From sequence record NC_070981.1: a stretch of 64,000 nt of DNA; one strand, given 5' to 3'. Source of the DNA: Escherichia phage EK010. The translations under genes were made by a program, and so were the position numbers. Of this stretch, positions 9,245 through 64,000 are shown piece after piece (positions within the stretch are counted from its first letter, which is position 1; each line of letters starts with the position of its first letter). A model generated the notes under the pieces. The model saw only the letters and a list, made by a program, of their open reading frames with translations. It was not told the origin of the DNA and searched no databases.

Positions 9245-9496
9245 ATGTTCAATCGTTTATTTGACCGTAAAGGTCGCACTGACATACTGATACCTTCTAT
9301 CGGTGTGCCAGCTAAGTTCGGTGAGATACGTGCTGGTGATTTCTTCATGGAATCAGGTCGTCTTCATCTGAAGATCAACCTTGAACACGCTGTTGAAATC
9401 CTTAGTGATGATAAGCCAATCATCGGCACTTCGGTGTACAGTGCAAACCATACTGTATTTGTTGTCAATGTTCAGATTGAGATTAAATCACCATGA
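9245..9496 (+). CDS. small protein, paralog family A
   Basis: Track ORF; FGEIRAGDFF ... LHLKI motifs. Confidence 0.5.
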   Translation: MFNRLFDRKGRTDILIPSIGVPAKFGEIRAGDFFMESGRLHLKINLEHAVEILSDDKPIIGTSVYSANHTVFVVNVQIEIKSP

Positions 9497-9750
9497 AGAC
9501 AAACTTCCGAGCAGCAGTTATTACTAAAGTAATAGCAGTTGGTGATGTAATGATGCAAGTTCCTCTGAACACTCGTTACATTGCCATTGACCGAATGGGT
9601 TATGTGTGGGCTTGGAAGTGGAAGCCTACTTACAATGAACTGTTCGACGAATACCAGTGCGCTGGGCCTTACATGCCAACGTTGGTTGGTGTGTATGAAG
9701 ACGGTCCTTGTCGTACTCCTCAGTTAATTGAACTACCGGCGTGTGCTTAG
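9493..9750 (+). CDS. hypothetical protein (85 aa)
   Basis: Track ORF. Confidence 0.5.
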   Translation: MKTNFRAAVITKVIAVGDVMMQVPLNTRYIAIDRMGYVWAWKWKPTYNELFDEYQCAGPYMPTLVGVYEDGPCRTPQLIELPACA

Positions 9751-9751
9751 T

Positions 9752-9916
9752 ATGATTAAATGGTTCAAGCGTCTTGTGCACCTGCATGATTGGGTAATCC
9801 TTGAAAAATATACGCTGAAGATTACTGACGATCACGGTGGGACAAAGCACAAAGGTCTTCGCTATATTATGCAGTGTAAAGTGTGTGGTCATGTTACCAA
9901 GCGTGACATGATCTAA
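9752..9916 (+). CDS. small CxxC protein, tandem paralog 1 (MIKWFKRL...)
   Basis: Internal ATG of track ORF 9728-9916; near-identical N-terminus to next gene. Confidence 0.5.
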   Translation: MIKWFKRLVHLHDWVILEKYTLKITDDHGGTKHKGLRYIMQCKVCGHVTKRDMI

Positions 9917-9925
9917 GGGATCATT

Positions 9926-10090
9926 ATGATTAAATGGTTCAAGCGTCTCTTTCATTTCCATGAGTGGGAAGATCTTTCTACTTATGAATTGACGATCACA
10001 AATAAACTTACTGACAGAGAGCGACAAGGGTTGCGTATCTACTCTCGCTGTAAAGTGTGTGGTCTGCACAAGAAAACAGATCTGATCTAA
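9926..10090 (+). CDS. small CxxC protein, tandem paralog 2 (MIKWFKRLFHFHEW...CKVCG)
   Basis: Hand-translated 54-aa ORF below track cut-off; paralogous to flanking genes. Confidence 0.5.
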   Translation: MIKWFKRLFHFHEWEDLSTYELTITNKLTDRERQGLRIYSRCKVCGLHKKTDLI

Positions 10091-10098
10091 GGGGTGTT

Positions 10099-10308
10099 AT
10101 GTTCTTTCGTAAGAAAAAGCCCGAAGATTCTGAGTGTAAGCATGAGTGGGTGATCACTGAAAACCTACATATCACTCACGCTAAAGACACTCCAGTCGAG
10201 AGAAAAGAGTCTCGTGTATCTCGTATCTGTAAGCGCTGTTTGAAAATAGAACAGCATAAAGTTCCCGGTCATATTGGTCATGATGTGGCCTTGCGTATTT
10301 TCAGTTAA
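10099..10308 (+). CDS. small CxxC protein, tandem paralog 3
   Basis: Internal ATG of track ORF 10057-10308; shares HEW ... CKRC pattern. Confidence 0.5.
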   Translation: MFFRKKKPEDSECKHEWVITENLHITHAKDTPVERKESRVSRICKRCLKIEQHKVPGHIGHDVALRIFS

Positions 10309-10317
10309 ATAAATATA

Positions 10318-10395
10318 GCACCCTTAGCTCAATTGGATTAGAGTAGCGACCTTCTAAGTCGTCGGTTACAGGTTCGAATCCTGTAGGGTGCACCA
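10318..10395 (+). tRNA. tRNA-Arg (anticodon UCU)
   Basis: Hand-folded cloverleaf: 7-bp acceptor stem GCACCCT/AGGGTGC, anticodon loop CUUCUAA, T-arm ACAGG-TTCGAAT-CCTGT, encoded CCA. Confidence 0.85.
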
Positions 10396-10413
10396 ATTAA
10401 CGTAGGAGGGCAT

Positions 10414-10740
10414 ATGAGCTGGGGTGGTGTAATTACCTTAACCTGTATCTTTATCGCCTGTGTAGCTCTTACAGGCTGCGTACAGCATCGTCCTGATGGA
10501 TGGTGTGCATTATCGGTAGAAGGTGTCTGTGTTTCCCGTTGGCATAGCGGGGAGAAGATTCCTAGTGGTGAAATTGATATGCGTTATGCTGGTGCTTCTT
10601 GTTCTAATGGCGGTGCTGTTGACGAGAAGGCTTATGCAGAGCGTAACATGGAAACCCAAGGTGATTGGTCACGTTATGACTTCATCTCCCGTGGTGTACA
10701 GTGTAGTGGCTCTGTGACAACAACAGGTAAGGAGTGGTGA
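10414..10740 (+). CDS. Cys-rich lipoprotein (lipobox LTGC)
   Basis: Signal peptide VITLTCIFIACVALTGC; track ORF. Confidence 0.6.
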   Translation: MSWGGVITLTCIFIACVALTGCVQHRPDGWCALSVEGVCVSRWHSGEKIPSGEIDMRYAGASCSNGGAVDEKAYAERNMETQGDWSRYDFISRGVQCSGSVTTTGKEW

Positions 10741-10741
10741 T

Positions 10742-10996
10742 ATGTCTGGTCATTATTCTGATACGAAAGCTTTACTGGAAACAGCGGCTCAGACTTCATG
10801 CCAACAGCAAGTAAAAATGTTGTTGGTTGATATTCGTAATCTGCGTTGGCTTATCAAAGAAGGTCATATCGGAAACGCTGCCTATTACAACGTTAAAGAT
10901 ATCCTTCGCCGCCAGCACTTTCTTATCCACGGAAACGTGGTCACTCGCAACTATCAATGGAACGGTCAATGGTTACAGCAGCGTATGTCCTCCTGA
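10742..10996 (+). CDS. hypothetical protein (84 aa)
   Basis: Track ORF. Confidence 0.5.
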   Translation: MSGHYSDTKALLETAAQTSCQQQVKMLLVDIRNLRWLIKEGHIGNAAYYNVKDILRRQHFLIHGNVVTRNYQWNGQWLQQRMSS

Positions 10997-11223
10997 TTTA
11001 TGTTATTGGTTGGTGGTTGGCAGCCATTGTAGTTAAATGGTGCTTCAAAACCAATACACTCTACAACTTCTTCCATTCCTCATGGAGTGGTAAGCCTGAT
11101 GAATACTCTATTTGGACGGTGATATTCTTCTGGCCTTTTATGCTGATCTTTATCCTCTTCTTACCTTTACTTATGTTGATAGGTTGGGTAATGGATAAGG
11201 TGACAATCTTTGTTACTAAGTAA
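10957..11223 (+). CDS. membrane protein (2 predicted TM helices)
   Basis: Track ORF; hydrophobic segments; start uncertain. Confidence 0.45.
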   Translation: MERSMVTAAYVLLIYVIGWWLAAIVVKWCFKTNTLYNFFHSSWSGKPDEYSIWTVIFFWPFMLIFILFLPLLMLIGWVMDKVTIFVTK

Positions 11224-11414
11224 TATCGTGAAGGATTCTTACGAGAGTCCTTTGAGATAGGACTTCAGATCTCCTATCAACTAACCGCTCAATGTTGAGC
11301 ATTTTATTCACATAAGCCCCTCATGGGCTGGGTTTAATGCCGGTAAGCGTTTTACGCTATCCACTACAGCATCGGATTGTTAGGTCTTACATGCAACATT
11401 AATTAATAGGATAT

Positions 11415-11444
11415 GGGAGGATTCGTCCCCTCCCCCTATTTATG
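11415..11444 (+). terminator. possible terminator hairpin
   Basis: GGGAGG/CCTCCC stem, weak T-tract. Confidence 0.3.
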
Positions 11445-11499
11445 AAAGCATTCTTCCGAGAGTTCTCTCATAAATTGGTCCATAACTAAAGGTGGTAAA

Positions 11500-11754
11500 A
11501 TGAAAGTTAACAAACCAGCCAGTAAGAACGCAATACCCCTCAGTGCTTTGCGACTTGGGGATTGCTTCATGTACCCTAACAGTGAAGATGGTGATTTGTA
11601 CATCTTACTGTCTACCGAGTTCTCAACTCGACTCTGCATCAAGGGCGCGGACGAGCATAGACTTGTAGCCTGTCTTAACACAGGCCGAGCGACAGCTCCT
11701 CGTAAAGATGTTGCTGTTATTCCTATTAAAGCTGAAGCAACTATTAAGGAGTAA
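11500..11754 (+). CDS. small protein, paralog family A
   Basis: Track ORF; AAAGGTGG SD; LSALRLGDCF motif. Confidence 0.55.
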   Translation: MKVNKPASKNAIPLSALRLGDCFMYPNSEDGDLYILLSTEFSTRLCIKGADEHRLVACLNTGRATAPRKDVAVIPIKAEATIKE

Positions 11755-11757
11755 GCA

Positions 11758-12021
11758 ATGGCTCTGACCATTAACAAAACTCGTATTGCGGATATTCCTC
11801 TAATGGTGGCAGGTGTTTCTATCGGTTCTTTCTTTACTTTGAAAGAAGATAAAGAACAAACCATTTACATGAAAGTGAACAAAAGCTCTAATGGTTGTGA
11901 ATACCACCGAGCTGTGTCTATGCAGAGTGGATACGTTCGTAATATGGCATCCAATATGCCAGTTGGTATTGTGTTTGAATCAGCAACTCTGGATTTAGTG
12001 GAGAAGATCAGTGAAACATAA
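11758..12021 (+). CDS. small protein, weak paralog family A member
   Basis: Track ORF. Confidence 0.5.
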   Translation: MALTINKTRIADIPLMVAGVSIGSFFTLKEDKEQTIYMKVNKSSNGCEYHRAVSMQSGYVRNMASNMPVGIVFESATLDLVEKISET

Positions 12022-12268
12022 AGACCATCCAAAGTATGTATCGCTATTGGATGCAGCCCTTCTCTGCACGTACTGGCTCCTTATTATTATTGGGGTTGTG
12101 CTAATGATATGTGGTGTCGTACAGTTCTTTATGTATCTACAAAGCGTGTTAGATATCACATTAGCTAACACTATAATCCTTGCAATTCTCGGTGTTATTG
12201 CTTTCTGTGTGATTGTCTTCTTCGTTTGGTTATCTATGAACGACGACTCTACACACACCTTCTATTGA
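12011..12268 (+). CDS. membrane protein (2 TM helices)
   Basis: Track ORF; strongly hydrophobic. Confidence 0.5.
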   Translation: MKHKDHPKYVSLLDAALLCTYWLLIIIGVVLMICGVVQFFMYLQSVLDITLANTIILAILGVIAFCVIVFFVWLSMNDDSTHTFY

Positions 12269-12281
12269 CAGGAGAAAATCA

Positions 12282-12398
12282 ATGAGAAAACGTGCCTACT
12301 CTGAAGAAGAAATGGTTAACTTGAAAGGCTTCGGTCAACGACAGCCTGACGGCTCAGTTATCTGGTACATTAACGGACAGAAAAAGGCAAGTAAATAA
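12282..12398 (+). CDS. possible small protein (38 aa)
   Basis: ATG with GGAGAAAA SD; below track cut-off. Confidence 0.3.
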   Translation: MRKRAYSEEEMVNLKGFGQRQPDGSVIWYINGQKKASK

Positions 12399-12467
12399 GC
12401 CCTCTTCTCTCCTCCTTTTAACTACTATGACGCCTCTCTTTTCGGCGCTGTTTTGGAGCTTCAAAAA

Positions 12468-12881
12468 ATGGCTGGGAAATTCCCCAACGTAAGCAAGAAA
12501 TTGGCTTACCTCACGTATAAAGAAAACATTGATCTTCTGGTCAAGCTATATCCGGCTTCATTCAACAAGCAATTCCCTCTTCCTTTGGAGCTTAATGTCC
12601 ACAAGGAAATCGCCCGCAAGACTGGTTGGTCAGCGGAGAAAACAAGCATGGTGCTCAACATCTGGACTACTCGTATGGAGTATGTGATGATGGCCTGTAG
12701 CACTGGTAAACGCTTCAAGCTGCACTCTGTAGCTATGAAGATTCATAGCCCTATTGACCCTGAGCCGATGGCTGGCTTTATTAGCCGTCTGAAATCTTTC
12801 CGTGATCGTGGTCGTGTAGTGAAATTCAAGCATGACTTCTCTTACAAGTTTGGATACGAAGCGTTCCAATTTGTTGTTTAA
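12468..12881 (+). CDS. hypothetical protein
   Basis: ATG inside track ORF 12453-12881. Confidence 0.55.
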   Translation: MAGKFPNVSKKLAYLTYKENIDLLVKLYPASFNKQFPLPLELNVHKEIARKTGWSAEKTSMVLNIWTTRMEYVMMACSTGKRFKLHSVAMKIHSPIDPEPMAGFISRLKSFRDRGRVVKFKHDFSYKFGYEAFQFVV

Positions 12882-54692: not shown

Positions 54693-55490
54693 TTATCTGT
54701 AAATGTCAGTGCCTATGCTAGACAGACGTCTAAGCACGGCTTGTGTTTGTGGACTATATCGAGAACCTGCCTGAGTGGGAGCATGTGCTCTTTGCACAGT
54801 TTGAGAGTTAGGTTGCTTTCCTGCAAGCATAGAGGCAGCTGCCAATACAGCATTACCAAAATTCTGTTGAGGTTTTTGATCCTCTCCGGAAGATTGTTCG
54901 TCAGAGTAAAACTCTACAGGACTACCACCTAAAGCTCCAGCCTTACTTGCAGCTATCTCTGCCTGAGTTGGAGCATTAGCAGCTCCTTCTTTAGTAAGTG
55001 TGTTAGAGCCGAATTGGTCTACAGGTTGTGCTGCTTTCAAAGCACCGACAGGGTTAGCCACTTGAGATGCTGCTGTATTCTTATCAAAGAATGGTAAGAA
55101 TAACTTGTTGTTCATAGAATCTAAAGCTTGAGGAGTAAACCCACGCTTACCAGAGAACATCTGTTTTGCACCACCAGTCCCTTCTGAATATCCCACCAAA
55201 GCTTTCCTCACATCACCATCAAAAGCTTTTAGGTTGTCTCTCAAATACCTAGCACCCATATCAATATTCTTTGCAGGGTCTAATCTATCTTCTAGTTTGT
55301 AACCATAATCTTTAGCCAACCCTTTACTGATTTGCATTAAACCTACTGGCCCTGTACCTGATGCAACAGAGGGTCTACCACTAGACTCCCTCTGGATAAC
55401 TGCATGGATAAGAGCAGCAGGAATGCCGTACTTCTTAGAAGCTTGCTGGACCATAGGATCTAGCTCAGACACTCCCATTCTTATTGTCAT
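54693..55490 (-). CDS. lytic transglycosylase (SLT domain)
   Basis: HAVIQRESSGRPSVASGTGPVGLMQI motif. Confidence 0.8.
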   Translation of the reverse strand: MTIRMGVSELDPMVQQASKKYGIPAALIHAVIQRESSGRPSVASGTGPVGLMQISKGLAKDYGYKLEDRLDPAKNIDMGARYLRDNLKAFDGDVRKALVGYSEGTGGAKQMFSGKRGFTPQALDSMNNKLFLPFFDKNTAASQVANPVGALKAAQPVDQFGSNTLTKEGAANAPTQAEIAASKAGALGGSPVEFYSDEQSSGEDQKPQQNFGNAVLAAASMLAGKQPNSQTVQRAHAPTQAGSRYSPQTQAVLRRLSSIGTDIYR

Positions 55491-55502
55491 ACGTCCTCCT
55501 TG

Positions 55503-56537
55503 TTATATACTTGCAAAAATTTTAGTTGCATCTAATACAGGAACGGAGATCCCTATAGTTGAGTTAGAGCCTAGGTCGTAGGAGTTATCCCACTGGAACA
55601 TATACCTCCCATACCCTGTACCAAAAGAAGAACCATTCATAGTGTGTGACCTAGCATGTTGGAAATACCAACCACTACCATTACCTCGGATAGCACCTAC
55701 ACCAGAAGATAAAGGTATCATTGGGTATGAGATTCCTGTATTCCCACCACTATAAGGCATAAAATTGTGAATCATCATTGGTGTTCTGTAAGTAGAGAAT
55801 ACACACTGAGAACCGTTAGGAGAATAAATGTTCAGTCCACCGTTGTGAGTAGGAACACTGCCACCATCACAGAACACTGCAACCCTAACTGTTCCGATGT
55901 TACCACCTGCGTTGTTGTTTCCGTTGTTGTAAGATCTGTTTTGATATACCCGAATAGTTCTATCACCAGCTGTGTATAGAAGACCTGCACCACTGTTTGA
56001 CCAATTGGCAAATACCATGTATCTGTTAGAATCAAACCCACTAATCGCAGGTATCTGCATAGAACCGTTGATTGTGCCCTCCCAAGCATAAATACACTGA
56101 CCAACCGTACCACTATCAGAGATAGAGAAGTAGTCAGCTGTGTTTGAAAAAGTAATACCGTAGTTTCTGTTAGCTCTAGGCCAAATCTGGTATACGTTAA
56201 ATCCACAGTCAAACAGAGGGTTACTTCCGGGGTTCTGGTTGATGCTGACCCTGAAGGTAGAGTTATTGATTACAGAAATTCCAGTGACACAATAAACATC
56301 AGGAATTAAGTTAGGAGGAACTTCCCATTGCCAGCACAAACTGCCAATCGGAGCAATAACAATTTGACCTGAACCGTCCCATCCCGATATAGGGAAATCT
56401 CTGCTTCCTCCATTGAAGTTGTAGTTACCACTCACTCTATTCTTGAATTGAGGGAAAGTTGAACCACTATCAATAAAAAGTTCAGAAGGAGTTGCTGGTC
56501 CCGGCCCTACTGGTTTAGTCCAAATTCCATATGCCAT
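55503..56537 (-). CDS. tail-associated protein (344 aa)
   Basis: Track ORF in structural block; Gly/Asn/Ser-rich. Confidence 0.55.
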   Translation of the reverse strand: MAYGIWTKPVGPGPATPSELFIDSGSTFPQFKNRVSGNYNFNGGSRDFPISGWDGSGQIVIAPIGSLCWQWEVPPNLIPDVYCVTGISVINNSTFRVSINQNPGSNPLFDCGFNVYQIWPRANRNYGITFSNTADYFSISDSGTVGQCIYAWEGTINGSMQIPAISGFDSNRYMVFANWSNSGAGLLYTAGDRTIRVYQNRSYNNGNNNAGGNIGTVRVAVFCDGGSVPTHNGGLNIYSPNGSQCVFSTYRTPMMIHNFMPYSGGNTGISYPMIPLSSGVGAIRGNGSGWYFQHARSHTMNGSSFGTGYGRYMFQWDNSYDLGSNSTIGISVPVLDATKIFASI

Positions 56538-56538
56538 A

Positions 56539-57552
56539 TTACCATGTCCCTATTCTAATTCTTAACGTACCACTGCCGTCATAGAAATCTATACGGCTTC
56601 CATTCATCCACAACCTGTTACCACCAGAGGTTGGACCTAATTGAAAATCTCCACCAACTGTAAGTCTCCAGTTAGACCCACTCATTGCACCAGCAGTAAT
56701 CTTGTTAGCTGACAAGTTTTGAATCTGAGCATTACTAACAGACACATTATCAATCTGTGCCCATTGGATTCGAGCATTTGATATCATTGCTGTCGTTATG
56801 TTGACGTTCTTGATATCAGCAAACTCCATCCTAGCTCGACCATTCTCAAAGACGAAAGGTGCATTACCTGATGTACCATTACCGACAATAAACTTATTCG
56901 CTGTAACTTGAAACTGACTATTCGTACCATTGTTGGTAAGCTTAACTCCAGCATACTGACCGTTAACAGAAGAGTTAACACCCCACGTAGCTTCATAGGA
57001 GGAAAGTTTCATATATTGAGACAGAGAGTTCTGAACTGTAGTAACTTTACCATCTACCGTTGCTATCTGTTGACCTTGAGCGGTAAGCTCTGTTTGAACT
57101 AAAGCAATCTCTTGACCTTGGTCATTTACAATACCTTCTACCGTTTGAATCTTAAGATTAGTCCCTTCAATAGAGGTCTTGAAGCCTGCTACCGTCCCAT
57201 CTAGTTTGGTAGGAGGAACAGTTGAGTTATCCCAAATATCTTCAGTGGACAGATTACCCATTTGTGTCTGGATATCAGCAATAGCTGTTTCAATCTCTGT
57301 AGTAATTCTATTCTCAAGTTCGTCAAATTGAAGATTCATTGCATTAAGAGCTTTGATTCGAACATCAATCTCATCATGTATCTCATCAATTGCTTGGAAC
57401 ATTTGGTTTGTAGCGGTGCTGACTTTCTGGAGTTCATCATAAACCGCAACGTTGTATTTATCCGTATCCTCTACATTGTTGAGAAAGCCAACGTTGTAGG
57501 GAAGCGTGGTGTTGTTTCTTCCAGTATTCTTACGAAAACCTCCAGCACCCAT
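56539..57552 (-). CDS. tail fibre-like protein
   Basis: Track ORF; coiled-coil N-terminal region then beta-rich Gly/Asn region. Confidence 0.55.
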   Translation of the reverse strand: MGAGGFRKNTGRNNTTLPYNVGFLNNVEDTDKYNVAVYDELQKVSTATNQMFQAIDEIHDEIDVRIKALNAMNLQFDELENRITTEIETAIADIQTQMGNLSTEDIWDNSTVPPTKLDGTVAGFKTSIEGTNLKIQTVEGIVNDQGQEIALVQTELTAQGQQIATVDGKVTTVQNSLSQYMKLSSYEATWGVNSSVNGQYAGVKLTNNGTNSQFQVTANKFIVGNGTSGNAPFVFENGRARMEFADIKNVNITTAMISNARIQWAQIDNVSVSNAQIQNLSANKITAGAMSGSNWRLTVGGDFQLGPTSGGNRLWMNGSRIDFYDGSGTLRIRIGTW

Positions 57553-57570
57553 AAGTACCTCCCATTATAA

Positions 57571-57596
57571 ACAATAAAAGGGGCCGAAGCCCCTTG
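57571..57596 (-). terminator. intrinsic terminator (minus strand)
   Basis: GGGGC-CGAA-GCCCC hairpin with T-tract on minus strand. Confidence 0.6.
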
Positions 57597-57599
57597 TCG

Positions 57600-60599
57600 T
57601 TACCTTCGACCGCCAACAGCAAACTCTATAGTGAGTCCATTCATAGATGCATTACTGTTAACATCATTATCTATAACATTATAGAATAGGTATGGATGGT
57701 TCAATCTTACTGACACATGACGGTCTACCCCAACCCTAAACTCTTTAGTTGAGTGATTATGTCCATACTCATTAGAGAATTGACTTCCACCTGCTTCGAA
57801 CATATAAGTGCCTGTTCCTGTCACTTGTGGTCTAAACCTGTTGATGTGTTTTTGATTCCATTCATTAGTGACATTATCAAAGTCAATACCAGTCCTCTCT
57901 AGCCTCATTTCTAAAGGCCTTTCTATGACTGTATCGTTTGATCTGTCATAAAAATAATCTAAAGCACCAACATCTACTTGATAGAACCCTCTCAAGAAAG
58001 AACCTACTATTGTAACCCTCTGACGGAAGTTTGTTGCATCCTTTCTCCAGACAAGTTTATCAATAGATGGATCATCCCAAGTGACTTCTTGAAAATCTGC
58101 CCAAATAGGACCACGCTCAAGAACAGGAGGATCAACCAAACCAATACAATAAGAGTGTGGAATAGTACGGAAAGACCAAGTATCAAATTCGTAGTTCCAA
58201 ACAGCAGCTTTGGTACAAGCGAAACTCTCTTTTGGCTCTCCCGGTCCTACGTATAGAATCCAAACTTCTTTCTTATCTTGGTGTAGGTGAACTTTAGTAG
58301 CTATGGGATTAACTAAACAAATCTCATTGATTAGCATATTCTTAACACGATTGGAAGCAATTGACTTCTTAGATGCCCCATTATGAAGAATAACATCGTT
58401 CTGAGTAACTACAAAATGACCACCCTCTACTTCCACAACACATTCGGGAGCAAGAATTCCTGAATCGTTAAACAACTTCTTAAACATCAGAGGTTGATAT
58501 GTGTTATTAGTGGGTGACCCAATGTATGTCTCAAATTCAGTGTAAACAAACAAATAGTCCTTCAGAGGTAACACTTCTATAAGACTACCGTTCGAATCTG
58601 CAAGATCAATATACCCTGCATACCCATTCTCAAGAGCTTCAGTCTGTCCGACAATATTAGCAGCAAGATCAGAGCTGACAGCCCTATCATATGCATAATC
58701 ATCCCACAGCTCTGGAGCCTTGTTCTCTTCTGCAAAATTAGACCAACGAAGACGCAACGGGTAATGTGTTGTAACGCCAGAAGCATTAGATTCTCTCATA
58801 TTCAGAGCAAACAATCTGTTGTTAAATGCACGAATGCGCTCACACTTCCAGTTATACTTCTTAACAGAAGGGTTCCCTGATGCATCTACTACTGTCTGTT
58901 CGCCCCATCCCGGCAAGTCAACAAAGTATTCAGAATCAAACTCTTTAACTTGAGGAGTTTCATAATGGGTGGTTGCAACTGCACAGTTAGAGATGATAGT
59001 ATGATACCACGGGTAATCTTCAAAAGCATCGTAGTCTTTTTGAACCATCTGACTTACAGTGCAGGTAACTTTCACTTCACCCTTACGGAGAGCTGTGAGC
59101 TTGAGAGTAGGGCTACTAGTGTTGGTAGTAGACACATAACCACTCTTATCTACAGTCCATTTATAGGAATAGTTACCAGTCGGAGAAGCTGTTGCTGTCA
59201 ATACAATCTCTTCACCAACATCCAGAGAGGCATCTATAATATCCAAAGTCACGCCACTTAAAGGAGGGTCATTAGCTAGAAGAGCAGCTCTGCCAAAACC
59301 TTCAAGGTCCATTACGTTAGAGTAGTCATAGAAATTGTTACCTTCTGCCATACCTGTTGTATCAATTCCAGTGTTCTCTGATGCAAAATATACCACATCT
59401 TCTTTCTCAATCACAGGCTCTTCTACCGGAGCTTCAGGAGTAATAGAGTAAGACAAAGAACGAGCCATTCTAGAAGCCAAACCAACTTGAACTTCACAAG
59501 TAGCGGTACGTTTACCTTCTACAGTTGTTGCCGTGATTTGAGTATACCCCGCTACTAGGCCAGTAATGGTTGCTTCTGTACTAGAACCACTAACAGTAGC
59601 AATGTTGGGGTTAGAACTTGTCCAAGTGATTGCTTTGTTAGGGGCATTGGCTGGATTAACCGTAGCTGTTAGTATGTACTGAGTCCCCCTATTCATTGTT
59701 ACATTCTCTTGACTTAAAGAGATGCTATCAATCTGAGGAATTGCAGAAACTACACAAGATGCAGTTTTTGTCCCATTATCAGCTGTAATGGTTACGTTAC
59801 CTTCTCCTGAAGCCCTCAACACTGCGGTTAAAGAGTTTGAGTTAGGAGTGACTGACACAATACTTGGATTAGAGCTTGTCCAAGTGACGCTTGGTTTTCC
59901 TGTAATAGCAGTAAGTGTTGAAGTTCCTCCTTTTCTCACTGTCAATGTATCCTGACTTAAGAAGATTCCAGAATCTCCATCAATAATGTTAACTGCAATC
60001 TGAGTAGAAATGGATTCATCTGCCGTTCGAACTGTAACTACTAAATTACCCTCAACAGCTTTAGAAGTAAGAGTTGCTCTCTTAGAATCTGTAGGATCAA
60101 CAACAATACTGCCATAGGCTGAGTTACTTACTGACCAAACTAGGTTAGTATTTTGTGCATCTTCTGGAGTTACACTAACTTCCAAAACCTTTGTTTTATT
60201 GAAAGTCATAGAAACAGAGGATTCTTTAGGGGTAATAGAAGATACTACCGGATAAATCTTAAGTGTCGCTGTTGCTTTCTTAGTTGCTGTAGCAACCTTG
60301 CGACTGATGTCAGTAAGCCCTTCATCAGTTAATTTGTACAACTTCTTATCTGTACCAACTACAAGGAAACTGTTGCCAGCGCTATAATAGTCAAAAGGCA
60401 TAGAGATGAAAGAGAGGGGGGTAAGCTCCTTATCTTCATCAACGTAAGAAAGAGGGGCATTGCCCCCCGTCTTAAAAACCCTTTGCTCAACAAAACGAGC
60501 ATTAATAGCGTTAGTGAAAGCATTTGGTGCTAAGTCAGTAGGTGCTTGGTCAGCGATAACCCCAACTGCCCCTAATGATTTTATTGGATATAAAGCCAT
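57600..60599 (-). CDS. large tail protein with tandem bacterial Ig-like (Big_2) domains
   Basis: Repeated Big_2-like segments (e.g. QENVTMNRGTQYILTATVNPANAPNKAITWTSSNPNIATVS). Confidence 0.7.
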   Translation of the reverse strand: MALYPIKSLGAVGVIADQAPTDLAPNAFTNAINARFVEQRVFKTGGNAPLSYVDEDKELTPLSFISMPFDYYSAGNSFLVVGTDKKLYKLTDEGLTDISRKVATATKKATATLKIYPVVSSITPKESSVSMTFNKTKVLEVSVTPEDAQNTNLVWSVSNSAYGSIVVDPTDSKRATLTSKAVEGNLVVTVRTADESISTQIAVNIIDGDSGIFLSQDTLTVRKGGTSTLTAITGKPSVTWTSSNPSIVSVTPNSNSLTAVLRASGEGNVTITADNGTKTASCVVSAIPQIDSISLSQENVTMNRGTQYILTATVNPANAPNKAITWTSSNPNIATVSGSSTEATITGLVAGYTQITATTVEGKRTATCEVQVGLASRMARSLSYSITPEAPVEEPVIEKEDVVYFASENTGIDTTGMAEGNNFYDYSNVMDLEGFGRAALLANDPPLSGVTLDIIDASLDVGEEIVLTATASPTGNYSYKWTVDKSGYVSTTNTSSPTLKLTALRKGEVKVTCTVSQMVQKDYDAFEDYPWYHTIISNCAVATTHYETPQVKEFDSEYFVDLPGWGEQTVVDASGNPSVKKYNWKCERIRAFNNRLFALNMRESNASGVTTHYPLRLRWSNFAEENKAPELWDDYAYDRAVSSDLAANIVGQTEALENGYAGYIDLADSNGSLIEVLPLKDYLFVYTEFETYIGSPTNNTYQPLMFKKLFNDSGILAPECVVEVEGGHFVVTQNDVILHNGASKKSIASNRVKNMLINEICLVNPIATKVHLHQDKKEVWILYVGPGEPKESFACTKAAVWNYEFDTWSFRTIPHSYCIGLVDPPVLERGPIWADFQEVTWDDPSIDKLVWRKDATNFRQRVTIVGSFLRGFYQVDVGALDYFYDRSNDTVIERPLEMRLERTGIDFDNVTNEWNQKHINRFRPQVTGTGTYMFEAGGSQFSNEYGHNHSTKEFRVGVDRHVSVRLNHPYLFYNVIDNDVNSNASMNGLTIEFAVGGRR

Positions 60600-60610
60600 T
60601 ATAGCCCTCC

Positions 60611-61414
60611 TTAGCTAATACGTCTCCAAATGTGTGCTGCTCGGAACGGAGGCAATGTGTTAATAGGTTGGCGAGATGTATCATCACGACCAAAACTAAC
60701 AGAACCTGTGATTGTGTGTGAGTGAGTATTAGTGTCAGTCACCTGAGTGTAACCACTACCCGGACTATACCAGTTAGGGCTGCTGTTATGACCACTTGCA
60801 TCACCTCGTCCCATTCTGATATTGTGTGAGTGGGAATAAGAACTAACTTGGAAACTAGAACCGTTGATTGTGGTTAGAGGGATATTATCAGCACGAATCG
60901 TATTGAATACGCGACCACCTGTACCACCTGCTTGAAATTCTACACGTTGGGCGTTAGGAACAGACCCATCAGGGTTAACAACACCAGTACCCATAATAAC
61001 ACCTGTTACTTTGGCCCAAGAGCCAAAACCAAGAGATGCGGAATCACCCGGATTGATATCTTCTTCAGTGATGTAATAAGAACCAATACGGTACAACTTA
61101 TTCTGCATCCAATTCAACATGAAAGCTTCCATCTGACCTTTGGTTACAGCATCTTTGTCTCCAGTTCCCGGAGTAAGATTTTTAATCATAAGATTACCAA
61201 CATCCATAGCATCACCAGTAAAAGTAATCTTCTCTGATAGAGCTTTAAAAGACTCAGAAGAGAGGTCTACCGGCTCTGTAATATTAGGGAATGTGTTAAT
61301 CAAAACCTGCTTAATGAGGCGGAGTTGAGCCGCCCCTTCGTAAATGTAATCCCTGTCCCGAGGGTACAGAGGGTTTAAATCGGTAGTCACTACCGCAGTT
61401 GTTTCGATAGCCAT
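60611..61414 (-). CDS. tail fibre protein
   Basis: Track ORF; DAVTKGQM motif typical of fibre N-terminal regions. Confidence 0.55.
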   Translation of the reverse strand: MAIETTAVVTTDLNPLYPRDRDYIYEGAAQLRLIKQVLINTFPNITEPVDLSSESFKALSEKITFTGDAMDVGNLMIKNLTPGTGDKDAVTKGQMEAFMLNWMQNKLYRIGSYYITEEDINPGDSASLGFGSWAKVTGVIMGTGVVNPDGSVPNAQRVEFQAGGTGGRVFNTIRADNIPLTTINGSSFQVSSYSHSHNIRMGRGDASGHNSSPNWYSPGSGYTQVTDTNTHSHTITGSVSFGRDDTSRQPINTLPPFRAAHIWRRIS

Positions 61415-61426
61415 AAGGCACCTCCA

Positions 61427-61951
61427 TTAATATTTTCCTGTGGTGTATAGGTCTGCTTCTGCAACCCTACGATTGTGAAGTCCCGGACTCTGTTGTTTTA
61501 CACCCTTAACAGTTATCTTATCCCAACGCAAGAATTCTGAATAAACATCACCCTTTACGTCCCCGTTAATCACTTTCCTAAGTTTTGAGGTTGATAGAGC
61601 ACCACCACCAACATTAAAGTTGAACGAGGTGACAGCATCAAACTCATGGGCTAACATAGGAACTCTTATGTTTTTCTGAGTAGCACGAACAGAGTCTTGT
61701 GTGTCTCTATCTAGCAGAGCTAGACAATCCTCTATAGAATACGTTAATCCTTGTCTTACTGGATACCCATTCATATCGCGCGTAGCCCCTACACATATTG
61801 TCCAGATTCCAGCGGAGTCTTTATAGGCTTTAGTTCTCATGCCTTCATGTTTCATGATAAACTCCATACCGTCTGGACTCAGGCTCATTTGTACAGGTGG
61901 CAATGCGATAGCGTCCATCTTGACCTCCTTTTTGTTATTATGATAGGTCAA
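61427..61951 (-). CDS. GH24 (T4-type) lysozyme
   Basis: EGMRTKAYKDSAGIWTICVG catalytic E/D/T motif; true start may be an internal Met. Confidence 0.85.
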   Translation of the reverse strand: MTYHNNKKEVKMDAIALPPVQMSLSPDGMEFIMKHEGMRTKAYKDSAGIWTICVGATRDMNGYPVRQGLTYSIEDCLALLDRDTQDSVRATQKNIRVPMLAHEFDAVTSFNFNVGGGALSTSKLRKVINGDVKGDVYSEFLRWDKITVKGVKQQSPGLHNRRVAEADLYTTGKY

Positions 61952-62170
61952 TTAAGGAAGAATTTTTCTCAGAGCTGAAGATTGAGCATCTGGGCAAATA
62001 ACAACCAAATTATTTTGAATGGTCCTTTGTTTACATTGAGAACTGAGCTTCTCTACGGGAGCTTCTATAACAGAATGAGAGCTTACCGCATTTACAGGCA
62101 CTGCCGTAGAAATCACAAAACCAGTCCCTAAGCAAGCAAGACCATAAGTTACTTGTTTCATCATTTTCAT
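61952..62170 (-). CDS. small exported/TM protein (possible holin or lysis accessory)
   Basis: N-terminal signal/TM segment with VNA cleavage-like site, immediately upstream of lysozyme. Confidence 0.4.
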   Translation of the reverse strand: MKMMKQVTYGLACLGTGFVISTAVPVNAVSSHSVIEAPVEKLSSQCKQRTIQNNLVVICPDAQSSALRKILP

Positions 62171-62240
62171 TTTCTTCTCCTTTTCGTTTTCCTTTTGGAT
62201 ATAGTAGTTTCATTACTTATTCACCAGTTTCACTCCTAAA

Positions 62241-62256
62241 AGCCCCCGAAGGGGCT
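62241..62256 (-). terminator. GC-rich tetraloop hairpin after tail-fibre stop (possible attenuator)
   Basis: AGCCCC-CGAA-GGGGCT; only 3 T on minus strand. Confidence 0.3.
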
Positions 62257-62260
62257 TATC

Positions 62261-64000
62261 TCACTTCTCTGCTAACTTCGCTTCTAGAACTTCAATACGC
62301 TTCAGCAGATCTTGAACAACCTGCATGGTATCTAAAAGCATTGGAGTTGCATCCAACTCTTTCTGTTCCTGCTCTACCCCATCGTTGTCATGGAATTTAC
62401 GAGTTTTAACATAAAGAGGTTCAACTTTCTCTGCCTGCTGTGCAATGATACCACGACGAGTTCTTCCTTGATTATCATTGTTGTACACAAACGATTTGAA
62501 ATCCAAACCTTTTATCGCACGAATTGCTTCATCAGGAGAGATATCTTGGATGTTATGTTTCAACCTTTCATCAGATACAGGATTCATAGCAAGAGTATAA
62601 GTTCCAGCGGAGCCGGGCTGCCATGTGTAATAGAAAATCTCATTTCTGTTTGGTCGAAGGGTTAAACGACACCCGAATTGGTTATTTTCATCACCAGAGA
62701 CATGCCAACAGGAATCAGCAAAAGATCCAGCATCATTGTGAATCATCCCTACATGGGTAGTAGTTTTGTATCCACCTTGAGATGCTTGGGAAGCACTCAG
62801 TATAGAGTTAAAAGAGTAGTTAGCACCAATCCCTTGGTTATCTATAGAAAACGTCCCTCTGCGAATTCCTGTTTCGTTCCAAGACATCAATGTTCTAGAC
62901 CGAGCAGCATACCTATCAGAGTTCAGGGTTCCAGAATCGTCAAAAGCTAATTGCTTGGTAACACCTTTGGTTTTATTATAAACACCAATAATCCCATAAT
63001 AAACTCCGTCGATATAAGCATCAGTTTGGAGCGTAGTAGAAGCCTCTACTTCTGAACCAATTTTATATTCAGCAACAACAGAACCACTAGTTACTCGAGT
63101 TCCACCAGCAGGACGGTTTGCATCACTATTAATAACTGACCAAGAAGTGTTAGCTGCTACAAAAGCACCTTTAGCTCTGATAACCCAAACGCCGATGAAT
63201 GAATTTGTTCTAACCTCAGAAACGTCGTCCTTACCGTAGACCGGACTTGAGCGCGATGCGTCGAGCCTGAATGAGATATACCTAGTCCCAGCTTCGGGGG
63301 TTGTTAGATTTAGCACCCCTTGAGCAACTGGTGTAGGGAAGTAAACGGCCCCTCCTTGTTGCGCATTGTTGTAGGCATAAGATTGCCACTGACCAGTTAT
63401 ATTTGGCGCGGCGGCCTCGTGGATCTTTCTGGTGAAATCTCCTGACCCACGACCATATAGACCCTTTATACTTCCCGGTTGAACACCATTCTTATCAGGA
63501 ACTCGGAATGTGGTAGAGCCATCGCCTAGTGAATATTGAGACCTTTTCAGAGGATCTGCCAGCCAATCAGCATCAGAGATAGGTGTTATCATTTGCGCGT
63601 ATGCCCAAAGCTCTGGATAATCTGTACGAGAAAGAAGTTGACCATCTGACGGGATATCATTAGATGGGATATAAGCTCTACTGTCAATTAAACGGAAATC
63701 ACCAATGTTGAAATTGGAGATACCATTCATTGTAGGGCCACCAGAACCTCCACCACTGTTACGAAGCTGCCTTAGTGTAACTGCATCATAGTCACCTACA
63801 GCATCTGCTACAGTAACCGGTTGCTGAAAGGTAACTTTCTCGGTAAATTGTTTGATATCAGAGTTGATACCAGTTCGAGTTACACCAATGGTGCGTCCTT
63901 TGGAATCTTTTACATAGGAACCGATTGAAGCGAAAGGTAAATCCTCGATCTCAGGACGATAACGTTTAGAGTAAATAGGATACTTGGTTTCTATACCACC
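62261..64000 (-). CDS. tail fibre with collar domain and C-terminal S74 intramolecular chaperone; 5' end beyond window
   Basis: SDERLKHNIQDI chaperone motif, DGQLLSRTDYPELWAYA collar motif; hand translation upstream of the track Met (63730) stays open to 64000 and contains VTVADAVGDYDAVTLRQL. Confidence 0.7.
   Translation of the reverse strand, partial: GGIETKYPIYSKRYRPEIEDLPFASIGSYVKDSKGRTIGVTRTGINSDIKQFTEKVTFQQPVTVADAVGDYDAVTLRQLRNSGGGSGGPTMNGISNFNIGDFRLIDSRAYIPSNDIPSDGQLLSRTDYPELWAYAQMITPISDADWLADPLKRSQYSLGDGSTTFRVPDKNGVQPGSIKGLYGRGSGDFTRKIHEAAAPNITGQWQSYAYNNAQQGGAVYFPTPVAQGVLNLTTPEAGTRYISFRLDASRSSPVYGKDDVSEVRTNSFIGVWVIRAKGAFVAANTSWSVINSDANRPAGGTRVTSGSVVAEYKIGSEVEASTTLQTDAYIDGVYYGIIGVYNKTKGVTKQLAFDDSGTLNSDRYAARSRTLMSWNETGIRRGTFSIDNQGIGANYSFNSILSASQASQGGYKTTTHVGMIHNDAGSFADSCWHVSGDENNQFGCRLTLRPNRNEIFYYTWQPGSAGTYTLAMNPVSDERLKHNIQDISPDEAIRAIKGLDFKSFVYNNDNQGRTRRGIIAQQAEKVEPLYVKTRKFHDNDGVEQEQKELDATPMLLDTMQVVQDLLKRIEVLEAKLAEK

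Follow-up and report, generated by a model that had tools for sequence, protein, structure and literature searches.

At the edge of the DNA analysed here – 64,000 nucleotides of Escherichia phage EK010 (NC_070981.1), hereafter the window – a list of open reading frames places an ATG-initiated frame on the minus strand, 62261..63730, that begins at its first in-window ATG. If this ATG is the true start, then the gene encodes a protein of 489 residues; if it is not, then the gene runs off the end of the window and its beginning must be sought elsewhere. An earlier note, made from the letters alone, had favoured the second possibility, and had proposed that the frame encodes a tail fibre that ends in an S74 chaperone domain and is matured by autoproteolysis. 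The locus thus raises three questions: where the gene begins, what its product is, and whether that product is likely to be processed. Our reading – which we consider very probably correct – is that the region encodes the C-terminal 579 of the 718 residues of the distal long-tail-fibre protein of a podovirus of the Gordonclarkvirinae, a protein whose folding would be templated by its S74 domain and which would then cleave itself. Nothing in the sequence contradicts the assignment to a distal long tail fibre. The features of the region are collected in Table 1.

Table 1. Features of the fibre gene, in window coordinates; residue numbers are those of the 718-aa protein.
Feature	Position	Strand	Basis or remark
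Partial CDS, residues 140-718 plus stop	62261..64000	-	E20-1 ORF14, UYE89918.1; start equivalent to 64417, outside the window
End of N-terminal anchor/shaft, residues 140-200	63818..64000	-	Conserved among Gordonclarkvirinae distal fibre proteins
VTVADAVGDYDAVTLRQL junction motif, residues 201-218	63764..63817	-	Start of horizontally shared receptor-binding module
Internal Met230 codon (false in-window start of the gene track)	63728..63730	-	ORF list, full CDS
Receptor-binding module 1, residues 236-415 (approximate bounds)	63173..63712	-	Matches T4-gp12-like 'collar' region of EP335 gp13 / Bas87 fibre
Receptor-binding module 2, residues 416-614 (approximate bounds)	62576..63172	-	Distal tip, 'T5-like RBD2' in PMC11990801
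Peptidase_S74 intramolecular chaperone, residues 615-718 (104 aa, ~12 kDa)	62264..62575	-	Pfam, homologue alignment
SDERLK (within SDERLKHNIQDI): Ser615 at 62573-62575, Lys620 at 62558-62560	62558..62575	-	Translation
Fibre gene stop codon	62261..62263	-	Translation

The open frame and the true start of the gene

Translation of the minus strand from 64000 to 62261 gives 579 sense codons followed by a stop codon, and the stretch 63731-64000 is free of stop codons in the fibre frame, in agreement with the hand translation reported earlier. On uniform-codon arithmetic the probability that 90 codons upstream of Met230 are open by chance is ~0.013, while for all 579 codons it is ~1e-12. An open frame due to chance is excluded because the frame is identical to a deposited gene: a megablast search with 61000-64000 gives 100.0% along the entire query to the genome of Escherichia phage E20-1 (OP293233.1; 77,938 bp, a member of the Gordonclarkvirinae that carries the label Kuravirus). 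Base-by-base comparison of 55000-64000 with the same record gives 1 mismatch in 9001 nt, located at window 61414 and thus outside the fibre gene; it bears on whether the short-fibre gene starts with ATG or TTG. The E20-1 record annotates the gene as ORF14, "tail fiber" (718 aa), and the protein is identical to the one deposited for phage EK010.

Extension of the sequence beyond 64000, which the earlier note had named as a check, was made by way of OP293233.1. In window numbering the full gene runs from 62261 to 64417: its ATG lies outside the window, at a distance of 417 nt, follows TAAGGAGAATTAAAT with an AAGGAG ribosome-binding site (Shine-Dalgarno), has an in-frame stop 5 codons upstream, and opens a protein that begins MSRELMPKSG. 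The first 139 codons of the gene are thus missing from the window, just as had been supposed when the start was placed outside it, and the ATG at 63728-63730 encodes an internal methionine, residue 230 of 718. An independent indication comes from the PHROGs database, where phrog_6921 ('tail fiber') matches the window fragment (E = 4e-184) over profile positions 137-734 of 738; since the alignment starts at position 137, some 136 N-terminal residues are missing.

The truncated frame is a window-edge artefact over an annotated, well-understood gene family, and as such is already known: gene, domain, layout and processing can all be found in the GenBank entry and in the literature on SU10, EP335, DT57C and the BASEL collection, and no open question is advanced by a fibre gene cut at an edge. 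What it does illustrate is a consequence for annotation. A gene caller that is given the window alone produces a 489-aa protein from an internal methionine and drops the 229 residues that precede Met230, among them the part by which the protein is attached to the virion.

Identity and mosaic anatomy of the fibre protein

Over its length the protein is 57% identical to SU10 gp13, 79% identical to the fibre of AnnaHegner/Bas87 and 51% identical to EP335 gp13. Its neighbourhood is equally informative. In E20-1 the genes follow in the order SU10_adaptor-like, a 1073-aa fibre (ORF13), ORF14, holin, lysozyme, a 267-aa Gp10_C protein, a 999-aa Big_2 protein and Phage_Tail_Tip, an order that matches the tail module of SU10: adaptor, proximal fibre, distal fibre, holin, endolysin, short tail fibre, nozzle and needle. 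The gene two places upstream of the fibre gene matches PF24175 (SU10_adaptor), and the other neighbours carry Phage_lysozyme, Gp10_C, Big_2 (nozzle) and Phage_Tail_Tip domains. In SU10, cryo-EM has assigned the adaptor to gp11, the long tail fibre to gp12 (proximal) and gp13 (distal), the short fibre to gp16, the nozzle to gp17 and the needle to gp18 (PMC9509320). Judged by synteny and sequence, the protein encoded here is the distal long-tail-fibre protein; its position in the distal half of the long fibre would follow from the SU10 assignment, which was made by cryo-EM together with micrographs (PMC9509320). A search of the protein against NCBIfam found no family. Between the fibre stop codon and the holin gene (61952-62170) lies a gap of 90 nt, in which nothing turned up when 61800-62400 was scanned for promoters and terminators. 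The same scan detected only a hairpin, situated inside the coding region.

Segment-wise BLAST shows that conservation is distributed unevenly along the chain. Residues 1-235 form a conserved anchor and shaft common to SU10 gp13, EP335 gp13 and Bas87, of which residues 1-139 fall outside the window. Over residues 1-200 identity is 83.5% to SU10 gp13 and 86% to Bas87; the first 48 residues, also outside the window, are 71% identical to residues 1-48 of DT57C LtfB and include a peptide of ~45 residues shared with it, in line with what has been observed for phiEco32 gp15 and LtfB (PMC4728585). For residues 201-235 identity is 97% (SU10 gp13), 94% (Bas87) and 80% (the paralogous ORF13 of E20-1). 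Module 1 (residues 236-415) is, by sequence, the most divergent cassette: identity is 47% to SU10 gp13, 47% to Bas87 (for its RBD1, E = 7e-53), 52% to DT57C LtfA and 57% to ORF13. Pfam Collar matches over this module (21.4 and 20.7 bits) lie below the cut-off of 24, and sub-threshold Collar matches recur in 17 of the 36 homologues. Residues 416-614 are 27% identical to SU10 gp13 and 88% identical to Bas87, and for residues 615-718 the corresponding values are 75% and 99%. In nucleotide alignments many relatives follow the gene at 80-91% no further than window ~63193 (about residue 408), beyond which they diverge, a pattern consistent with cassette exchange.

The motif VTVADAVGDYDAVTLRQL deserves separate mention. 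The earlier note had reported it and had taken it for a typical N-region motif of fibres. The motif is indeed present, but the label does not hold: occupying residues 201-218 of 718, it is not an N-terminal marker. Homology to the fibres of unrelated phage groups – the T5-like LtfA, LtfB and fp01, and the 45-kb siphovirus Sloth – begins at residues ~203-205, at this very motif, which therefore marks the start of an exchangeable receptor-binding module some 200 residues into the protein. Seven of its positions (D205, V207, D209, D211, A212, T214 and R216) are invariant in the 36 homologues. The region also gives a weak match to the Pfam family YadA_stalk (E = 0.026; 15 bits where 28 would be required); membership was rejected, and the match is taken only as a resemblance to a stalk motif of fibres or adhesins.

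Claims about the fold of these modules rest on homology and on the literature, given a poor model and an empty structural search. An AlphaFold2 monomer of the 718 residues, built on an alignment of 36 sequences, reached a mean pLDDT of 43.3 and a pTM of 0.25, with moderate confidence only over residues ~430-610; a monomer is poorly suited to the task, since it cannot represent an intertwined trimer. When the PDB was searched with this model by Foldseek, nothing matched at E <= 0.001, and the hits returned (PCNA and fHbp, for example) were noise. Searches with the fibre protein itself, by sequence and by profile, did not reach T4 gp12, T5 pb1 or K1F endosialidase in the PDB. They did give one strong match, to chain d of 8HQZ (DT57C LtfA), which is a match to the deposited sequence only: 8HQZ models just the N-terminal part of LtfA (PMC10713586), so that the region homologous to the fibre protein is without a solved structure. 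Membership of the 'T-shaped' class at fold level would likewise depend on sequence homology to the published exemplar, Bas87.

The S74 domain and its predicted self-cleavage

Pfam Peptidase_S74 (PF13884) matches residues 476-529 of the fragment, that is, residues 615-668 of the full protein, with a score of 53 bits (cut-off 22; E = 4.3e-14), which bears out the earlier recognition of a C-terminal S74 intramolecular chaperone (IMC). The domain is present in all 36 aligned homologues, with Ser615, Asp616 and Lys620 invariant among them; S615 and K620 are also invariant in five fibre proteins. It comprises the last 104 residues, at the extreme C-terminus of a protein that PHROG and orthology identify as a tail fibre, and it ends in a predicted helix at residues 697-717. 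A profile of five IMC regions, searched against the PDB, matches solved IMC domains with the serine and lysine columns aligned: S16 gp37 (6F45), a tail fibre (8JOV), MYRF (7DC3) and the GA-1 neck appendage (3GUD). S615 and K620 align with the motif SD..(I/L)K of 6F45 (SDRRIK) and 8JOV (SDERLK), and with the corresponding position of 7DC3.

The spacing of the two residues, Ser and Lys at +5, is the same as that of Ser1264 and Lys1269 in T5 pb1. In that protein Ser1264 is activated by Lys1269 and cleavage needs correct folding of the trimer (PMC4690869); upstream, Arg1250 and Asp1239 from a neighbouring chain serve as a 'folding sensor'. Arginine and aspartate residues also occur upstream of Ser615 (in CRLTLRPNRNE and SGDENN), and their equivalence to Arg1250 and Asp1239 is a matter for a reliable trimer model (the AF2 monomer has a pLDDT of 43). 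Uncleaved T5 pb1 does not compete for adsorption (PMC4690869), which suggests that in T5 cleavage is needed to unmask the binding site.

A closer precedent is EP335 gp13, an orthologue for which the mass-spectrometric check of C-terminal processing already exists: LC-ESI-MS showed the loss of 11.8 kDa through cleavage between Ser621 and Asp622 (PMC8217332). Ser621 aligns with Ser615, TSDERIK of EP335 being matched to VSDERLK here. Cleavage of the 78.3-kDa full-length chain is predicted to yield a mature fibre of 66.34 kDa and a fragment of 11.95 kDa, to be compared with the 11.8 kDa lost by EP335 gp13. By analogy with this orthologue we infer, on good grounds, that the fibre protein matures by autoproteolysis, and the proposal made earlier to that effect was sound. 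The predicted scissile bond is ambiguous: it would be Ser615|Asp616 on the analogy with EP335 and Val614|Ser615 on the analogy with T5, because the serine stays with the fibre in EP335 and leaves with the chaperone in T5.

These precedents suggest the following course of events. Three fibre chains would trimerise, with the C-terminal domain acting as an intramolecular chaperone and template for folding of the trimer; Ser615, activated by Lys620, would then cut the chain at or next to itself, releasing the ~12 kDa fragment and leaving a mature fibre of ~66.3 kDa with its tip exposed. The mature trimer would dock onto the proximal fibre protein through an N-terminal peptide of ~48 residues, as has been proposed for phiEco32 gp15 on gp14 and for DT57C LtfB on LtfA (PMC4728585). 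The two variable modules (residues ~236-614) would bind surface glycans, probably O-antigen; such binding would constitute the first, reversible step of adsorption, which would trigger the rearrangement of short fibres and nozzle described for SU10.

How do other accounts of the region fare? Were the gene to start at the in-window ATG, 63730, as the ATG-initiated entry in the ORF list implies, its product would be the 489-aa protein and the open frame upstream would be incidental. Yet this frame is open for 90 further codons to the window edge and, in E20-1, for another 139 to an ATG that has both an AAGGAG and an upstream stop; conservation of residues 1-229 amounts to 84-97% in SU10, Bas87 and EP335, phrog_6921 aligns the fragment from profile position 137 onward, and Met230 lies inside the conserved GGPTMNGISNF as an internal residue invariant in the 36 homologues. 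We give a start at 63730 practically no credence. Scarcely more probable is a tailspike with enzymatic activity, namely that of an endosialidase-type depolymerase, in place of a non-enzymatic fibre. The S74 chaperone was first described on endosialidases, PF13884 is named 'Chaperone of endosialidase', and genes of the related PAS59 are annotated 'tailspike'; but Pfam, PHROGs and NCBIfam reveal no beta-helix, sialidase or lyase domain in the protein, all of its strong homologues are fibre proteins, EP335 gp13 binds cells, and the paper on PAS59 counts the absence of a plaque halo as further support for a lack of enzymatic activity.

An S74 domain that is present and yet uncleaved – a retained structural cap, or simply inactive – has somewhat more to recommend it, and is still unlikely. 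Processing in E20-1 is a prediction, and the relative Bas93 has a truncated IMC, so that the integrity of this domain varies within the group (PMC11990801). Against this, the domain is of full length and scores 53 bits, S615, D616 and K620 do not vary among the homologues, the IMC has 99% identity with its Bas87 counterpart and 75% with that in SU10, the orthologous EP335 gp13 cleaves itself, and the T5 protein, when uncleaved, fails to block adsorption. A distal long-tail-fibre protein that begins outside the window and removes its own chaperone is the reading that we retain.

Relation to known fibre systems

The proximal fibre gene of E20-1, ORF13, lies a short way beyond the window, and its product has a complete receptor-binding module and S74 domain of its own, like DT57C LtfA. 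It is Kuravirus-like over residues 1-477, LtfA-like over 200-1071 and paralogous to the ORF14 protein over 554-1073. Both long-tail-fibre proteins of E20-1 carry the complete module of junction, RBD1, RBD2 and S74. Among deposited relatives the ORF13 type of proximal fibre is found in few – LAMP, SDYTW1-F1-2-2_3 and possibly PAS59 – and this form of ORF13, just outside the window, is the sole mildly unusual point of the locus. Each of the six fibres might then be branched in the manner of DT57C, with four different receptor-binding trimers and self-cleaving chaperones, the ORF14 protein docking laterally by way of its 48-residue peptide: a tentative reading, to which we would grant slightly less than an even chance. 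If true, docking of the ORF14 protein would be lateral rather than end-on as drawn for SU10.

The protein is a determinant of host range in a group of phages used in studies of therapy and biocontrol, and its build – two exchangeable binding cassettes between a conserved anchor and a chaperone of the self-cleaving kind – bears on the engineering of fibres. EP335 gp13 occupies the same genomic position, is highly conserved over the N-terminal ~240 residues and has the same layout: a gp12-like central segment (Phe236-Ala422, matched to T4 gp12 by HHpred) and a C-terminal IMC of 114 residues (PMC8217332). In experiments it bound cells of serotypes O157 and O26 (Witte et al. 2021, PMC8217332). Both its distal receptor-binding region and its IMC are far more divergent from the E20-1 protein, and given the divergence of the receptor-binding region the specificity probably differs. 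SU10 gp13 (Siborova et al. 2022, PMC9509320), an orthologue by synteny and sequence although only 27% identical in RBD2, makes up the distal half of the six elbowed long fibres by which the phage first touches the host; the cryo-EM model of SU10 shows no more of the proximal gp12 than its first 90 residues, and hence no experimental structure covers gp13. With Bas87 (AnnaHegner), RBD2 and the IMC are 88% and 99% identical, whereas RBD1 is only 47% identical and appears to have been exchanged as a cassette, and in the Bas87 group the DNA similarity to the fibre gene stops at window ~63193. The Bas87 fibre has been described as a single polypeptide with two receptor-binding domains, RBD1 being Gp12-like and RBD2 T5-like, that is attached to a proximal fibre (Humolli et al. 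2025, PMC11990801); its T shape is an AlphaFold-Multimer prediction, and 'T-shaped' fibres are reported from Gordonclarkvirinae, Wifcevirus and some Tequintavirus phages (BASEL paper, PMC11990801).

More distant, but instructive with regard to assembly, are LtfA and LtfB of DT57C (Golomidova et al. 2016, PMC4728585), both of which have a C-terminal S74 domain. LtfB matches residues 29-716 at 34% identity, and residues 559-1071 of LtfA match residues 203-717 (E = 1.7e-102). The logic of docking is the same, with a distal protein attached to a proximal one; the setting differs, in that the branched, L-shaped fibres of DT57C sit on the tail tip of a T5-like siphovirus and those considered here on a podovirus adaptor. 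With T5 pb1 and K1F endosialidase (MEROPS S74) the protein shares the C-terminal position of the domain, a serine nucleophile with lysine at +5 and, by prediction, release after folding of the trimer (PMC4690869). Similarity to these two proteins does not reach E <= 1 in PDB searches, even with profiles, and the domains that precede S74 in them are unrelated in sequence to the fibre protein.

The RBD1/RBD2 boundary of the distal fibre gene

Between 61000 and approximately 63193 the window shares 80-91% nucleotide similarity with many Gordonclarkvirinae, among them 101114UKE3, Bas87, TH43 and EC.W2-6; there the similarity ends. This position corresponds roughly to residue 408 of the 718-aa distal long-tail-fibre protein, at the boundary between RBD1 and RBD2. 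Judged from these alignments, the site looks like a recombination breakpoint, with the RBD1 cassette being exchanged separately from RBD2 plus the intramolecular chaperone (the S74 domain).

A terminator-like hairpin found on both strands within the S74 coding region (stem of 6-7 bp, three GC pairs) is probably due to chance. Neither a promoter nor a terminator was predicted in the gap between the fibre and holin genes.

Coordinates of the features discussed (window positions)
Feature	Position	Size	GenBank product name	SU10 counterpart
Proximal long-tail-fibre protein, ORF13 (outside the window, upstream of the distal fibre gene; 9461-12682 of sequence L001)	64460-67681	1073 aa		
Terminator-like hairpin	62343-62360			
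Fibre-holin gap	62171-62260	90 nt		
Gp10_C protein (short-tail-fibre gene, minus strand)	60611-61414	267 aa	baseplate protein	short tail fibre gp16
Big_2 protein	57600-60599	999 aa	tail fiber	nozzle protein gp17

Product names and the short-tail-fibre start codon

The GenBank product names at 57600-61414 conflict with the structure of SU10. Over the 9001 nt compared, the window differs from the record of Escherichia phage E20-1 (OP293233.1) at a single position, 61414, where the window has T and the record has A; this is the first base of the short-tail-fibre start codon. The codon is ATG in the window and TTG in the E20-1 record, SU10 and Bas87, the latter three sharing the context GCCTT-TTG-GCTATC. 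The mismatch could reflect a difference between isolates (EK010, for example), a sequencing difference, or an edit.

The proximal fibre protein and fibre architecture

Residues 203-717 of the distal fibre protein match the deposited full-length sequence of LtfA (PDB 8HQZ chain d; E = 1.7e-102). However, because 8HQZ models LtfA in its N-terminal part only (PMC10713586), the region homologous to these residues has no experimental structure. ORF13, the proximal long-tail-fibre protein of E20-1, carries an S74 domain together with a sub-threshold Collar match, and its residues 554-1073 are paralogous to the distal fibre protein. Full-length matches to ORF13 among phage records are restricted to LAMP, SDYTW1-F1-2-2_3 and, as two pieces, PAS59. 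Over residues 1-477, ORF13 shares 75% identity with SU10 gp12, and its residues 200-1071 give a 36% match to residues 187-1070 of DT57C LtfA. Both SU10 gp12 and Bas87_0008 lack the C-terminal module present in ORF13. Taken together, the S74 domain, the likeness to LtfA and the paralogous C-terminal module suggest, at the level of sequence, that the E20-1 fibre may take the branched form of DT57C, with two self-cleaving tips.
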